From a virus, in IMG/VR virus record IMGVR_UViG_3300045988_098382: a DNA stretch of 64,000 bases; one strand, written 5' to 3'. A model generated the notes under the pieces. The model searched no databases, was not told the DNA's origin, and worked only from the letters and a program-made list of their open reading frames with translations. Within the stretch, counting starts at the first letter, position 1. Every line of letters begins with the position of its first letter. Below are positions 20,810 through 53,496 of this stretch, in pieces. Position numbers and translations under genes: made by a program.

Positions 20810-21619
20810 TTAGATAACCTTAAACATTGTAACATTCTCAGGAAGATTATTCCAGTCTTTATAAGAGTTAGTAAACCATACGTGATTAAAGTTTTCTGAT
20901 AGATTCTTTATACCTTTAGGATTTACCATATGAGTGACTGCGATATTTAAACGCTCTTTAGGAATATTTAGAGCAGTAAATGCTTTAGTAATACCGCAAA
21001 ATGTACCACCACCATCACATAAATCATCAAGAATTAAAAGAGGTTTATCCTGTATATTTTCAGGATTATTTACTTTTATCTCTAAGATTTTTCCAGTAGT
21101 TAAATCCCGAACTTTACTACAAGTAATTGTAGTATTATTATATCGGAATTCATTTCTCTTTTCAGCTCCAGCATCGGGGAAAACTAATTGAAATTCTTTC
21201 CAAGTATTATTAGATGGATTTTTTTCAACGTAGAGAGGCATAAATTTAACTCCGAATTTAGGATCATAATAAACATCAGAATGAGGTTCTAGAATTTCAA
21301 TAGTCTCGGCATTACAATTTTTTAATATATTTAAGACTATTTTTAAAGTAAATGGTCTATTGAAATCCATTACTCTATCCATTCTCATACTCATTAAGTA
21401 ATAGATATTTAGTTTATATAGAACTTCATGTCTATCAAGAATATCTAAAACTTGCATAAGTATAAATAAATCCTCAGCATTAGTAACTCTACATTTAACT
21501 AATACTTGTTCCTTATGACTAAATTCTTCTAATGAAATTTGAACTTCTCCATCAGGAAATCTAGAGATAGAGTATTTAATATCACTATCTTCTAGACGCA
21601 CTAAATTTAATTGTTGCAT
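20810..21619 (-). CDS. Ribose-phosphate pyrophosphokinase-like enzyme (Prs family; possibly an ADP-ribose pyrophosphokinase of the phage NAD-reconstitution pathway)
   Basis: RFPDGE N-terminal motif. PRPP-binding loop LLILDDLCDGGGT (like ILVDDMIDTGGT). Confidence 0.7.
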   Translation of the reverse strand: MQQLNLVRLEDSDIKYSISRFPDGEVQISLEEFSHKEQVLVKCRVTNAEDLFILMQVLDILDRHEVLYKLNIYYLMSMRMDRVMDFNRPFTLKIVLNILKNCNAETIEILEPHSDVYYDPKFGVKFMPLYVEKNPSNNTWKEFQLVFPDAGAEKRNEFRYNNTTITCSKVRDLTTGKILEIKVNNPENIQDKPLLILDDLCDGGGTFCGITKAFTALNIPKERLNIAVTHMVNPKGIKNLSENFNHVWFTNSYKDWNNLPENVTMFKVI

Positions 21620-22101
21620 AATTTATAAATATAAAGAGTTATTGTTGAATCATTAGCAAAAAGTTCTTGGAGCATAGGATAAACTACTCCGTCCCAATCT
21701 CCTCCTGCTAATCCACATCCTAACTTATAAGGAATACCTATCTCTGTAATCTCATTATTTTTACAAAAGTCTTTTAAATCTAATAAAGCTTTTTTAAGAG
21801 CATCATAATCAGTATGCCTATTTTCATAAGGGGCTACTGATTCAGTAAAAGAATATTCTCCAAATAAATTAGCTACGAGATTAATAGGTTTATCCCCTGT
21901 TATACATATTTGACATTTTCCTAATAATTCTTTAGAATATTTAAGAAGTTTACAAAAATTAACATATTGTGTATATACCAAATTCCATTTATTTTTAATA
22001 GATTTAGCTATACCTGCCCCCATTACTCCCAAACAATTAGTTTGATGGGCTATAAGAGGTAAGTTTGATTGGAGTAAATCTCCATTAACAATTTCTATCA
22101 T
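21607..22101 (-). CDS. Macro-domain protein (ADP-ribose binding / hydrolase)
   Basis: IVNGDLLQSNLPLIAHQTNCLGVMGAGIAKSI matches macro-domain motifs (GD, N, G-x-G-[VI]-A). Confidence 0.65.
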   Translation of the reverse strand: MIEIVNGDLLQSNLPLIAHQTNCLGVMGAGIAKSIKNKWNLVYTQYVNFCKLLKYSKELLGKCQICITGDKPINLVANLFGEYSFTESVAPYENRHTDYDALKKALLDLKDFCKNNEITEIGIPYKLGCGLAGGDWDGVVYPMLQELFANDSTITLYIYKLCNN

Positions 22102-23651
22102 ACTAATGTTGAATTTACACGTTCACGAATCTCAGAAAGAGAATATTCTCTTACTAATTCTCCATTTACAAAGATTGTTTTAAGACAACCTTGTAGTTCT
22201 GCATCCTTAGTCTGCTGGTCATAAGCAACATACTTACCATTCTCTTTTTCAACTCTAATAAGACCTTTGAGAGAGTTCTTTGTTCCGTCGTCAGTCTTTG
22301 GATGCTTATAGATTTCTATAAGTCTACCATTAATTATACAAGCAGTTGCTTTAACTGCGAATCCCAAAGAATCACGAGACTTAAACTGATAAGTATAAGA
22401 TCCAATACCAAGAACAAGATTACAAGCTGCCATATGAGCATTCTCTAATCTAGCATAGATATCACGCTGACGTTCTAGAGTAATAGAATCTCCATAGAGC
22501 AAACCTACCTTGGTACTTGGATAACGATAATCATTTATAGTAGTATTCCATCCAAAGATTTTACCTAGCATATAATATGCCCCATAGTACTGACCTTCAG
22601 ATACTTCTACATAATGACTTTCATCATCATCCATAAATGGATTGAAATCACAGTAGTACTTACCTTCTTTCATAGCAGTATGATAGTGAGGATTTGTACG
22701 AAGACCACAAATAATGTCTACTGGATCACCACTATCAGGACGAATTACTACTCGACCATCACGCTTCATAATGTCTGCCTTGAGCTTAGGCAAGAATTTC
22801 TCAACTACCTGCCAGAAATCCCAAGTATCAGATACTATTGAGATAATACCTGTTGGATATAGATCATTAATAAGACGACGAAATGTTTCAATCTCATCAT
22901 CCTCACCTCCTGCACACATTACACTGTGTTCAGTTGCCGGAACAGTTGCAGCTACAAGTTCTTTAGTAACATCTGCATTATAATAATGCTCTACTGCTTC
23001 TATAGCTGGAATTGTTTCACTACCACAGAATGAAGTCATGTGAGCCATACCTGAAATAACAGATGCATCAAGTCCTGCCATACCTCTCATTGAAAAATCG
23101 TGGCAAGAGAAACCTAAATTTACATCTTCTGGGAATCCAGTCTTTTTAGCATGTTCCATAAGTCTCTTCTTATAAAGACGAGCACTTGTTGCAGAAGTAC
23201 AAGGAAGCCATAGAGTACAACTAATTAAAGTTTCCAAATAATTAGTCAACCAGAAGAAATTAGGAAGAGTATTCTTAATAGTCATCATAGGTACTCTTAT
23301 AGGACAAATAGAACCTTCAGGAAGAGCTTTAATTTCAATAGGAAGATATCCTAAATCATAAAGTTCTTCAATATGCTTTGTTCCAACCTGATTAATATCT
23401 ACAAAGTTACCTACACGATAAGCAAATTGCTTAATAGCTTCTTCCTTAGGAATAGCAAACCATTTGTTAAATTCCTCTATCAAATACTTCTTTACAAAAT
23501 ACTGAATACCAAATACTACAGAACCTTCTGTAGCTTCTGGGAAGTAACGATTACTTCTAGGAGTCCAGTTACTATAGACCATTTGTGTACCCTCTGGGTA
23601 CATACGATGATGACCAAGCTTGTAGCCATCAGTTGCATTAATAATTTCCAT
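22098..23651 (-). CDS. Nicotinamide phosphoribosyltransferase-like enzyme (NAMPT/NadV family)
   Basis: 517 aa. DGYKLGHH near the N-terminus, DFSMRG, GDSITLER: hallmark NAMPT-family motifs. Confidence 0.8.
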   Translation of the reverse strand: MEIINATDGYKLGHHRMYPEGTQMVYSNWTPRSNRYFPEATEGSVVFGIQYFVKKYLIEEFNKWFAIPKEEAIKQFAYRVGNFVDINQVGTKHIEELYDLGYLPIEIKALPEGSICPIRVPMMTIKNTLPNFFWLTNYLETLISCTLWLPCTSATSARLYKKRLMEHAKKTGFPEDVNLGFSCHDFSMRGMAGLDASVISGMAHMTSFCGSETIPAIEAVEHYYNADVTKELVAATVPATEHSVMCAGGEDDEIETFRRLINDLYPTGIISIVSDTWDFWQVVEKFLPKLKADIMKRDGRVVIRPDSGDPVDIICGLRTNPHYHTAMKEGKYYCDFNPFMDDDESHYVEVSEGQYYGAYYMLGKIFGWNTTINDYRYPSTKVGLLYGDSITLERQRDIYARLENAHMAACNLVLGIGSYTYQFKSRDSLGFAVKATACIINGRLIEIYKHPKTDDGTKNSLKGLIRVEKENGKYVAYDQQTKDAELQGCLKTIFVNGELVREYSLSEIRERVNSTLV

Positions 23652-24141
23652 TAATTGATTCTTTTAATGTTAAACCTATACTATATTTATAAAACACTTC
23701 AGTTATATAATCTTTAGTTTCTTTGTGAATTTTCATATGAGATTGTTGTTTAGCCCACCATGTATATTCTCTTCTTGGGTCAGCTCCATATGTTTTAGCC
23801 GCTGCTAAATAATCACATATAAGTTCTAGAACATATTTTTTAGGCATTCTAGCAGGAACTCCTCCATCATCTAAAGAATGTATCCAATATTCATAATGAT
23901 GAGGATTCCGTCCTCTATGATGAAGAAATGTTTGACTATATCCTAATATTTTACGTTCGTTTGCTAATGAACTTATATTATCGTTCCAATATTTAATGGC
24001 TCTTGAAAATTCTACATAACTAAATTTAGATAAATCATGAGTAATACCTTGCCAATATAATCCTATTTGAAAACAATATTTAGCAACATAATACTTATGA
24101 GTTAAGATTCGTTTTATTAATTTTATCCAAACTAAGTTCAT
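23638..24141 (-). CDS. Hypothetical protein, possible HD-like metal-dependent hydrolase
   Basis: GITHDLSKF ... HHRGRNPHH histidine-rich motifs. Weak call. Confidence 0.3.
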   Translation of the reverse strand: MNLVWIKLIKRILTHKYYVAKYCFQIGLYWQGITHDLSKFSYVEFSRAIKYWNDNISSLANERKILGYSQTFLHHRGRNPHHYEYWIHSLDDGGVPARMPKKYVLELICDYLAAAKTYGADPRREYTWWAKQQSHMKIHKETKDYITEVFYKYSIGLTLKESINGNY

Positions 24142-25231: not shown

Positions 25232-25363
25232 TTAAATTAATAAATATTAGTAATGCTAATACAAAAATAGGGACTAATAAGATAAACTTACTAGTCCCTT
25301 TCTTCTTGCCATCAAAGGCTTCTACAATTTCTTTTAATGTCATATGTTCATTATATAATTAAT

Positions 25364-43904: not shown

Positions 43905-43990
43905 GAATTTGTACGGTAGAAAGGATTCGAACCAATGACCTTCTCGAAATGACCTATTATAAAAAGAGATGCTCTAACCACTGAGCTACT
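43905..43990 (-). ncRNA. tRNA-like gene with perfect acceptor and D-arm but a 4-bp anticodon stem enclosing a 20-nt loop and a degenerate T-stem
   Basis: Acceptor ACGGUAG/CUACCGU. D GCUC-AGUGGUUA-GAGC. UCUC-(20 nt)-GAGA. T region UGGUUCGAAUCCUUU. Same architecture as 44426..44506. Confidence 0.35.
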
Positions 43991-44050
43991 ACCGTAAGTA
44001 CTAGTTTATATCGGAAAACTAGTAAAACGTTAACACATTATTATGGAAAC

Positions 44051-53323: not shown

Positions 53324-53332
53324 AGATAATAT

Positions 53333-53404
53333 TCTCCTATGGTGTAATGGTTAGCACAGAAGACTCTAAATCTTTTAGTCAGGGTTCGAATCCTTGTGGG
53401 AGAA
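53333..53404 (+). tRNA. Amber suppressor tRNA (anticodon CUA), probably tRNA-Gln-derived
   Basis: Acceptor UCUCCUA/UGGGAGA (U1-A72, one G-U). U8. D-arm GUGU-AAUGGUUA-GCAC. Anticodon stem GAAGA/UCUUU, 7-nt loop CUCUAAA (U33, C34-U35-A36, A37). T-arm CAGGG-UUCGAAU-CCUUG. Discriminator A. Confidence 0.8.
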
Positions 53405-53496
53405 GAATAGTATAAGTAGAAACCTCCACGTGGTGCTATTCGGGTAACGCTAATTCTACTTCAAAACATAACAAAGTTTAAATTTTTAAATAAGAA

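Follow-up and report, generated by a model that had tools for sequence, protein, structure and literature searches.

Predicted NARP1-AP genes for NAD+ reconstitution, preceded by an HD-like DUF5662 gene, in an uncultured human-gut phage

A stretch of 64,000 nucleotides from the IMG/VR virus record IMGVR_UViG_3300045988_098382, referred to in the following as the window, carries four adjoining genes at positions 20810–24141 that an earlier note had described as a four-gene NAD module. Three of these genes (23651..20810) very probably encode NAD+ reconstitution pathway 1 together with its associated phosphatase (NARP1-AP), judging from the relationships of their products, Namat, an Adpp-like macro-domain protein and Adps. 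The case is built on the three family memberships, the Namat motifs, the conserved catalytic residues, the position of the genes in the operon and the recurrence of the arrangement in related loci. In the predicted pathway, the macro-domain protein would strip the 1''-phosphate from ADP-ribose (ADPR)-1''-phosphate, the product of NAD+ phosphorolysis by RES domains, to yield ADPR; Adps would use ATP to convert ADPR to ADPR pyrophosphate (ADPR-PP); and Namat would combine ADPR-PP with nicotinamide to form NAD+ directly, with no nicotinamide mononucleotide (NMN) or NMNAT step. Even without the phosphatase step, the Adps–Namat pair would still be expected to counter the plain-ADPR defenses SIR2, TIR, SEFIR, DSR and Thoeris I.

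The genes are co-oriented minus-strand open reading frames (ORFs), at exactly the limits given before, and overlap by 14, 4 and 13 bp in transcription order, which is DUF5662, NAMPT-like (Namat), macro and Prs-like (Adps). The DUF5662 gene had been called the trailing one; on the minus strand it is the first. Between the Namat and Adps genes there is a single gene of 164 amino acids (aa), with overlapping reading frames. The four features are:

24141..23638, minus strand: DUF5662 protein, 167 aa (PF18907); first (5') gene of the four
23651..22098, minus strand: Namat (nicotinamide ADP-ribose transferase, NAMPT fold), 517 aa; PDB 9w5x/9w5w match, SCH/SCL motifs
22101..21607, minus strand: Adpp-like macro-domain protein (predicted ADPR-1''-phosphate phosphatase), 164 aa; PF01661, phrog_335
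21619..20810, minus strand: Adps (predicted ADP-ribose pyrophosphokinase, Prs fold), 269 aa; phrog_619; last gene of the module

NARP1 consists of Adps and Namat, which are homologous to Prs and Nampt, respectively; the former pyrophosphorylates ADPR, the latter links ADPR-PP to nicotinamide, and ADPR-PP breaks down to ADPR-cyclic phosphate (Osterman et al., 10.1101/2024.02.11.579819). A macro-domain gene is present in 15% of NARP1 operons, as established by a screen for PF01661, PF14519 or PF20016 within two genes of NARP1 genes; its product, Adpp, is a Poa1p-like macro phosphatase that converts ADPR-1''-phosphate to ADPR and does not process cyclic ADPR (cADPR), and the operon named NARP1-AP, Adps–Adpp–Namat from Vibrio phage Gary, defeats the RES-domain defense aRES, which turns NAD+ into ADPR-1''P (10.64898/2026.01.28.702374). 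The macro gene in the window, lying between Namat and Adps, falls within the reach of that screen. The earlier suggestion that the gene set is an expanded variant of NARP1 was therefore correct for the macro gene, but this variant has already been published as NARP1-AP, and whatever novelty remains would lie in the DUF5662 gene and, in relatives of the phage, the substitution of the macro gene by a HAD-like gene. The macro protein had also been suggested to handle ADP-ribose or cADPR signals: published Adpp does yield ADPR from ADPR-1''-phosphate, whereas the part of the suggestion concerning cADPR does not hold for it.

The sequence of the NAMPT-like protein identifies it as Namat and not NadV. 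Profile searches bore out the domain calls that had been made for this protein, the macro protein and the Prs-like protein; the NAMPT-like protein matched PF04095 (E=8.5e-33) and PF18127, and scored 514 bits against NCBIfam NF006629 (cutoff 405). When the PDB was searched by sequence, the best matches were 9w5x/9w5w (483.5 bits), which we took to be SPbetaL1 Namat because the residues and numbering of the entry agree with those in PMC12774641, and 9ke8 (369 bits), compared to ≈210 bits for mammalian NAMPT, including the human protein, and 202 bits for Xanthomonas Nampt. A similar separation was seen by BLASTP, with 353–447 bits to the proteins of NARP1-type phages (Bacillus PBC2, Pakpunavirus SPA01, Thalassavirus Javier and Felixounavirus VpaE1) and 166–195 bits to NARP2-type NadV (KVP40-like phi-pp2 and Citrobacter phage Miller). 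The window Namat and the Thalassavirus Namat both belong to phrog_448.

The structure of SPbetaL1 Namat and its selectivity clamp were defined by Lan et al., who described two elements, the SCH motif GSX-phi-X-phi-X-phi-TRD, in which the X residues at positions 3 and 7 are aromatic, and the SCL loop, which is longer in Namat than in Nampt and whose third-position Arg, Lys or Tyr stacks on the adenine (PMC12774641). By alignment, residues 417–427 of the window protein, GSYTYQFKSRD, fit the consensus GSX-phi1-X-phi2-X-phi3-TRD, with Y, Y and F at the X positions and T and Q at phi1 and phi2. At the same columns the Namat references have GSFTYQYNTRD, GSFTYQYVTRD, GSYTYQYMTRD or GSYTYQCNTRD, while NARP2 NadV has GGGLLQQLDRD or GGGLLQEVTRD, with no aromatic motif. 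The SCL loop, TPR-S33-N34-R35-YFPEAT, is longer than the ESRGGKF of NadV, and its R35 aligns to R40 of SPbetaL1. Of the Nampt-like catalytic core, which in SPbetaL1 comprises F189, R192, D215, the catalytic His, R306 and D308, the window protein has F186, R189, H242, R304 and D306, with Glu at the position of D215. A lineage-specific insertion of ≈40 aa at residues 317–356 was considered as a special feature and rejected, as this segment varies in length in all Namats examined.

Several relatives carry interrupted or rearranged Namat genes. In close relatives the gene is split near aa 253–264 by an insertion of 172–692 bp (L171:6792-7485, L169, L170, L172, L175, L027, L033 and L077, where L numbers denote sampled loci), and the insertion in L171 contains an HNH homing-endonuclease ORF (..EWHLDHIRP..). 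Listeria, Staphylococcus, Pectobacterium and Felixounavirus phages likewise have Namat genes that are split or flanked by HNH genes. In MT836666.1 (L006:10295-12280), the maximal ORF includes a ≈205-aa AAA+ ATPase-like segment (GESGSGKSF) in frame with Namat, which is ≈75 aa short at the C-terminus after the SCH motif, and Adps is not preceded by a macro or HAD gene. Either the record is mis-assembled, or this NARP1 locus has been rearranged or is decaying.

The Prs-like protein gave only sub-threshold Pfam matches and reached 62 bits on the Prs model TIGR01251, for which the cutoff is 113. It matched phrog_619 at 208 bits, the same family in which the Thalassavirus Adps scores 273 bits. We built one hidden Markov model (HMM) from six independent Namat-linked phage Adps sequences (Thalassavirus, Felixounavirus, Pakpunavirus, and Bacillus, Listeria and Mycobacterium phages) and another from three Prs sequences (E. 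coli, and B. subtilis and S. solfataricus fragments copied from alignments). On the Adps HMM the window protein reached 173 bits, as against 51 with Prs, similar to the Adps references when each was left out in turn (150–213 and 45–92 bits), whereas genuine Prs proteins scored 87–121 and 375–405 bits. In a neighbor-joining (NJ) tree, the window protein, its relatives and the homologue from the Lak-A1 megaphage were nested in the Adps clade. The catalytic residues are kept (FPDGE, R79/D81/R82, H113, D148 and D198-D199..G203-G205-T206), and in the alignment K169 (S-K-V-R-D) coincides with the Lys that every Adps and Prs reference has (K162 of SPbetaL1 and K197 of B. subtilis Prs). This is good, if not definitive, evidence that the Prs-like protein belongs with the phage Adps and not with cellular Prs. 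The earlier note had read the Prs-like/NAMPT-like pair as the signature of NARP1 and had proposed an HMM comparison of the two enzymes with the Adps/Namat and Prs/NadV clades; the Namat motifs, bit scores, Adps HMM and tree all agree with this assignment.

The macro-domain protein matched PF01661 at 31.5 bits (gathering score 22) and phrog_335, annotated as a phosphatase, at 128 bits; the Thalassavirus macro protein also belongs to phrog_335. Its closest annotated phage relatives come from Vibrio harveyi Thalassavirus phages, where the gene directly follows one named "ribose-phosphate pyrophosphokinase", and an Adps–macro–Namat operon is present in four Thalassavirus genomes (Javier, Cody, Quinn and Direpillow8). 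Phage Gary is itself a Thalassavirus. The window and Javier macro proteins are 38% identical over the full length (E=6e-28) and have in common the phosphate-binding loops AHQxNCxxxMGxGIA and GCGLAGGDW. We consider the protein Adpp-like, with a predicted substrate specificity corresponding to that of Adpp.

The gene set resembles NARP1-AP of phage Gary in its families (phrog_619, phrog_335 and phrog_448, which are likewise those of the same-genus Thalassavirus operon), in the macro gene between the two core genes, and in the predicted chemistry from ADPR-1''P through ADPR and ADPR-PP to NAD+. It differs in gene order, Namat–Adpp–Adps instead of Adps–Adpp–Namat, in the DUF5662 HD-like gene that overlaps the start of Namat, in its source, an uncultured human-gut phage related to Prevotella-type phages, and in being known from sequence alone; the proteins are 27–43% identical to those of Thalassavirus. 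With the two-gene NARP1 of Bas63 and SPbetaL1 it has in common an Adps-clade kinase, with its catalytic Lys, and a Namat in which the SCH/SCL adenine clamp, the catalytic His and the catalytic Arg are kept; the macro gene in between, a Glu in place of an Asp, the Lys and Ser deviations in SCH and the ≈40-aa insertion set it apart. NARP2 (KVP40-type NadV plus the NMNAT/Nudix protein NatV) likewise restores NAD+ during infection with a NAMPT-fold enzyme, but in its NadV the aromatic SCH is replaced by GGGLLQxxxRD and the SCL is short, and the pathway requires an NMNAT and has no Adps partner. In mycobacteriophage DyoEdafos, a RyR-domain glycosidase (RyDEP) in the NARP1 operon feeds cADPR-derived ADPR into the pathway (10.64898/2026.05.28.727677). 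The likeness to this system is one of concept, an accessory that turns a defense-derived ADPR derivative into ADPR; RyDEP acts on 2'/3'cADPR, whereas the window has no RyR-domain gene and DUF5662 is an unrelated, all-helical, HD-like protein.

To place the window in a wider context, we mapped all components in 80 DUF5662-centered and 80 Namat-centered IMG/VR loci. Among these, 69 loci with full flanks and a Namat at least 59% identical to that of the window, all from one related phage group, formed the lineage set, in which the following layouts were found:

DUF5662–Namat–HAD–Adps: 41 loci of 69
DUF5662–Namat–Macro–Adps (the window layout): 15 loci of 69
Namat–HAD–Adps: 6 loci of 69
Namat–Adps: 3 loci of 69
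DUF5662–Namat–Adps: 2 loci of 69
Namat–HAD–DUF5662–Adps: 1 locus of 69
DUF5662–Namat: 1 locus of 69

The slot between Namat and Adps is thus occupied in 63 of the 69 loci, by a macro gene in 15 and by a gene for a HAD-like putative phosphatase in 48, which supports a phosphatase role for the macro protein of the window. The pattern fits selection for a phosphatase at that position. The HAD-like protein is 137–163 aa long (L012:7075-7506, L015:7098-7568, L105:7548-7979 and, in the Prevotella megaphage Lak-A1, L022:4540-4989, where the gene is likewise paired with Adps) and has all four HAD motifs, hhhhDFDNT, hhhT, KKPYYN and LLDDRAG. It matched phrog_1238 at 62–67 bits and had no Pfam match; a profile search gave one weak match (E=0.006), spanning the DFDGT motif I region, to 2obb, a small protein of B. 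thetaiotaomicron. PPR-repeat matches from a single-sequence PDB search were discarded as spurious. Three loci (L105, L111 and L155) combine a Namat 92–97% identical to that of the window with an Adps of only 67–68% identity and a HAD-like gene in the slot; it seems, therefore, that phosphatase and Adps are exchanged as a unit. On its motifs and position, the HAD-like protein is a candidate non-homologous analogue of Adpp. The 2026 screen by Osterman would have missed it, because macro Pfams alone were sought, and we found no mention of such a replacement in the two NARP1 papers searched for it. In a distant NARP1 locus with a Namat 48% identical to that of the window (L178:3915-4802), the HAD-like domain is followed, in the same protein, by an additional domain of ≈150 aa at the C-terminus, and the fusion gene adjoins Adps, ≈1.7 kb from Namat.

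Several observations count against the NARP1-AP assignment. All function is transferred from homologues, at identities of 36–47% for Namat, 27–30% for Adps and 38% for the macro protein, and the predicted substrates and anti-defense effect depend on this transfer. Gary was represented by the same-genus proxies Javier, Cody, Quinn and Direpillow8 and not by its own sequence. In Namat, the SCH motif deviates twice from the consensus, with Lys at phi-3 and Ser for Thr, and the nicotinamide-contacting Asp (D215 of SPbetaL1) is a Glu (E212; window 23016-23018); the window protein shares this Glu with its relatives from L012 and L015, and every other aligned Namat or Nampt reference has Asp. The replacement is conservative but may affect activity. 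The separation of Adps from Prs was made with small sets, six Adps and three Prs, and an NJ tree without bootstrap. The best PDB matches of the macro protein are DarG (5m3i, 37.9 bits), BT1257 and TARG1 and not yeast Poa1p (6lfu, 27 bits, E=3e-5), so that another ADP-ribose-related activity is conceivable. The search for an NMNAT covered 64 kb of a genome of ≈120–185 kb. Finally, MT835492 (L005:4747-4932; window 22185-24045), a 121.6-kb fecal phage scaffold that is the closest GenBank record at 93% nucleotide identity, has no Namat, yet its Adps (93% aa identity) and macro protein (85%) are intact. A clean, in-frame deletion of 1,858 bp, with a 6-bp CAAGGT microhomology at the junction, joins residues 1–32 of DUF5662 to the last 29 residues of Namat in this record. 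Either the pathway is dispensable, or Adps and the macro protein are valuable on their own; the deletion may reflect a true loss of the pathway in nature or an artifact of assembly.

If the genes served only classical salvage, the Prs-like protein would supply phosphoribosyl pyrophosphate (PRPP), the NAMPT-like protein would make NMN, and a host or phage NMNAT would complete NAD+, either as in NARP2 or for housekeeping. The Pfam and NCBIfam names, phosphoribosyltransferase/Prs-like and nicotinate/nicotinamide phosphoribosyltransferase, suggest such a role, and Namat keeps a residual PRPP-dependent NMN synthesis in vitro (PMC12774641). However, the SCH and SCL motifs are of the Namat type and not the Nampt type, Namat outscores NAMPT and NadV by a factor of more than two, and SPbetaL1 Adps showed no Prs activity (10.1101/2024.02.11.579819). 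As the earlier note had pointed out, classical salvage would have the two enzymes grouping with Prs and NadV and an NMNAT encoded elsewhere in the genome. What we found was a Prs-like protein far under the Prs cutoffs and nested among Adps, no cytidylyltransferase, NadR or Nudix Pfam match in the 57 window ORFs of at least 90 aa outside the module, and no HxGH, ISSTxxR or Nudix-box motif in the six frames of the window. We regard salvage alone as highly improbable. It is also rather improbable that the macro protein is directed at something other than aRES, either removing ADP-ribose from macromolecules like DarG or TARG1, for example against DarT-type DNA ADP-ribosylation, or clearing Appr-1''-p or Appr>p left by phage RNA repair, and adjoins NARP1 only because both handle ADP-ribose. 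In favor of this, besides the PDB matches listed above, the NCBIfam DarG model NF048014 gave 61 bits (far under its cutoff of 250), RNA ligase genes flank the Thalassavirus operons, and in MT835492 the macro and Adps genes have outlasted Namat. Against it, Javier macro, standing in for the proven Gary Adpp, has the same set of PDB matches (TARG1, BT1257, DarG and Poa1p), with an even weaker match to Poa1p, so that this spectrum is no argument against an Adpp function. The full-length identity to that proxy, the common PHROG, the fixed position between Namat and Adps and the replacement by a HAD-like gene in relatives suggest instead a small-molecule phosphatase.

The remaining gene encodes a member of DUF5662 (PF18907, E=6e-32), a family of 2,597 clusters at 50% identity (E<=1e-3), of which a literature search under the names DUF5662 and PF18907 found no mention. 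At E<=0.1, PF18907 was the only Pfam match, with no HD family among the hits, and a PDB sequence search gave a spurious match only. Among 66 homologues (29–64% identity), H15, H35-D36, E44, H75, N79, H81-H82, W86, E106 and D110 are invariant. The ligand-like pattern contained in this set, H..HD..H..HH..D, includes the H...HD...D metal-ligand motif of the HD superfamily and corresponds to what we take to be the ligand set of binuclear and trinuclear HD enzymes. An AlphaFold2 model was all-helical (predicted local distance difference test score, pLDDT, 96.3; predicted template modeling score, pTM, 0.91). A Foldseek search with the model returned nothing significant (best E=0.53), although the top matches were nonetheless HD proteins; the closest folds were the HD-GYP and PgpH cyclic-dinucleotide phosphodiesterases, at 6–15% identity. 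Compared to these, DUF5662 is far smaller, at 167 aa, and has no GYP motif, regulatory domains or Pfam HD match. Taken together, motif and model make a fair case for a remote member of the HD superfamily and a putative metal-dependent hydrolase, in line with the HD-like label given before. Multi-domain DUF5662 proteins include fusions to the 2-thiouracil desulfurase TudS, in three of ten checked (P0155, P0166 and P0248), to an RNA-repair HAD domain (P0170, DUF5662-HAD_SAK_2) and to a PLP-dependent decarboxylase; none of the partners are NAD enzymes.

DUF5662 adjoins Namat in 60 of the 69 lineage loci, a count that does not represent independent events because the loci come from one phage group, and the two genes overlap by ≈11–14 bp in all 15 macro-type loci. 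In one locus (L037/L151, IMGVR_UViG_3300021254_000026) the order is Namat–HAD–DUF5662–Adps, the only case with DUF5662 inside the cluster. In another (L013), an Endonuclease VII gene sits between DUF5662 and Namat. DUF5662 is missing from L105, L111 and L155, with their nearly identical Namat, and from all seven distant NARP1 loci sampled. Conversely, there was no NARP gene nearby in 28 of the 80 DUF5662-centered loci, comprising all 26 at <=53% identity and two at 62–66%, nor in the annotated Moorella and Manatee Spring phages; the loci with DUF5662 but no NARP genes are L009-L011, L036, L038 and L079-L104. On a phage-like contig (L185/L186; L185:3589-4618), a 46%-identical DUF5662 homologue overlaps a gene of the YAcAr SLOG family, which is predicted to act on NAD+/ADPr (PMC7824862), and a Sequestin-family gene lies ≈3.2 kb upstream.

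The idea of a four-gene module would make DUF5662 a feeder in a four-enzyme extended pathway. It would act as an HD-type, possibly binuclear phosphodiesterase that opens a cyclic or esterified ADPR derivative, candidates being ADPR-1'',2''-cyclic phosphate, a spontaneous product of ADPR-PP, and a signal that the host derives from ADPR, and the product, once dephosphorylated by the macro or HAD-like protein, would re-enter at Adps. The adjacency and gene overlap, the retention of DUF5662 within the rearranged cluster of L037/L151, its likeness in fold and ligand pattern to cyclic-nucleotide phosphodiesterases and the overlap with a YAcAr SLOG gene in an unrelated contig all point in this direction; feeders within NARP1 operons are established for Adpp and RyDEP, and the decay of ADPR-PP would provide a substrate. 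Against this, the linkage is limited to one lineage, the gene is gone from very close as well as distant NARP1 loci and occurs elsewhere without NARP1, the junction is broken in L013, and the bacterial fusions suggest thiouracil or RNA-repair chemistry. Although the HD assignment and the adjacency were upheld, the four-gene module is weakly supported, and we consider the extended pathway unlikely. The most likely role of DUF5662 is that of a separate nucleotide phosphohydrolase or phosphodiesterase of the HD type, belonging to the nucleotide-metabolism and replication block of the phage, and it appears to be syntenic with NARP1 in this lineage rather than required. A broader version, at present quite speculative and in our view unlikely to be correct, would see NARP1 as a modular hub with interchangeable feeders, comprising the macro or HAD-like slot, swapped as a cassette with Adps, and a DUF5662 phosphodiesterase that opens ADPR-1'',2''-cyclic phosphate or another ADPR-derived product or signal for recycling. 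If true, this would amount to a four-step salvage route that also recovers the decay product of the pathway itself.

The window is AT-rich (≈29% GC), and almost all of its genes are on the minus strand. Outside the module, it encodes NrdD, helicases, DnaB, a PDDEXK nuclease, RNase H and similar functions in replication and nucleotide metabolism. The overlapping starts extend past the four genes, to orf75 and orf60 upstream and orf52 downstream. We therefore rejected the overlaps as proof of a four-gene operon: the genes are part of a longer co-directional string whose limits are not set by overlaps. A scan for sigma-70 promoters over 18.5–27 kb was at chance level (50 found, 53 expected) and uninformative on operon boundaries. 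The sole standout was a strong terminator-like hairpin at 25299-25269 (−), with a 13-bp stem and a T-run, upstream of the gene string; the hairpin (25269–25299) may mark the start of the transcription unit that holds the module.

We also found 18 tRNA genes in the window, at 43911–43995 (−), 53332–53405 (+) and ≈54.5–64 kb, including suppressor-type tRNA(tta) and tRNA(cta). When TAG was read as sense, the longest ORF grew from 140 to 773 codons at 52–57 kb, and from 125 to 308, 277 and 272 codons at 57–64 kb. Part of the window thus appears to be TAG-recoded, like Lak and crAss-type gut phages; for the NAD module, the standard code gives normal reading frames.

These results would extend NARP1-AP to abundant uncultured human-gut phages of ≈94–280 kb, probably with Bacteroidota or Prevotella hosts, and imply that these gut hosts use NAD+-depleting defenses, including RES-type NAD+ phosphorolysis. 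DUF5662, a large family with no assigned function, can now be placed structurally, if remotely, in the HD superfamily, and two proteins, the HAD-like one and DUF5662, stand out as specific candidates for additional NARP1 accessories. The comparison across loci is more useful than the window itself, and its data point to an accessory slot under selection for a phosphatase, whether macro or HAD-like.

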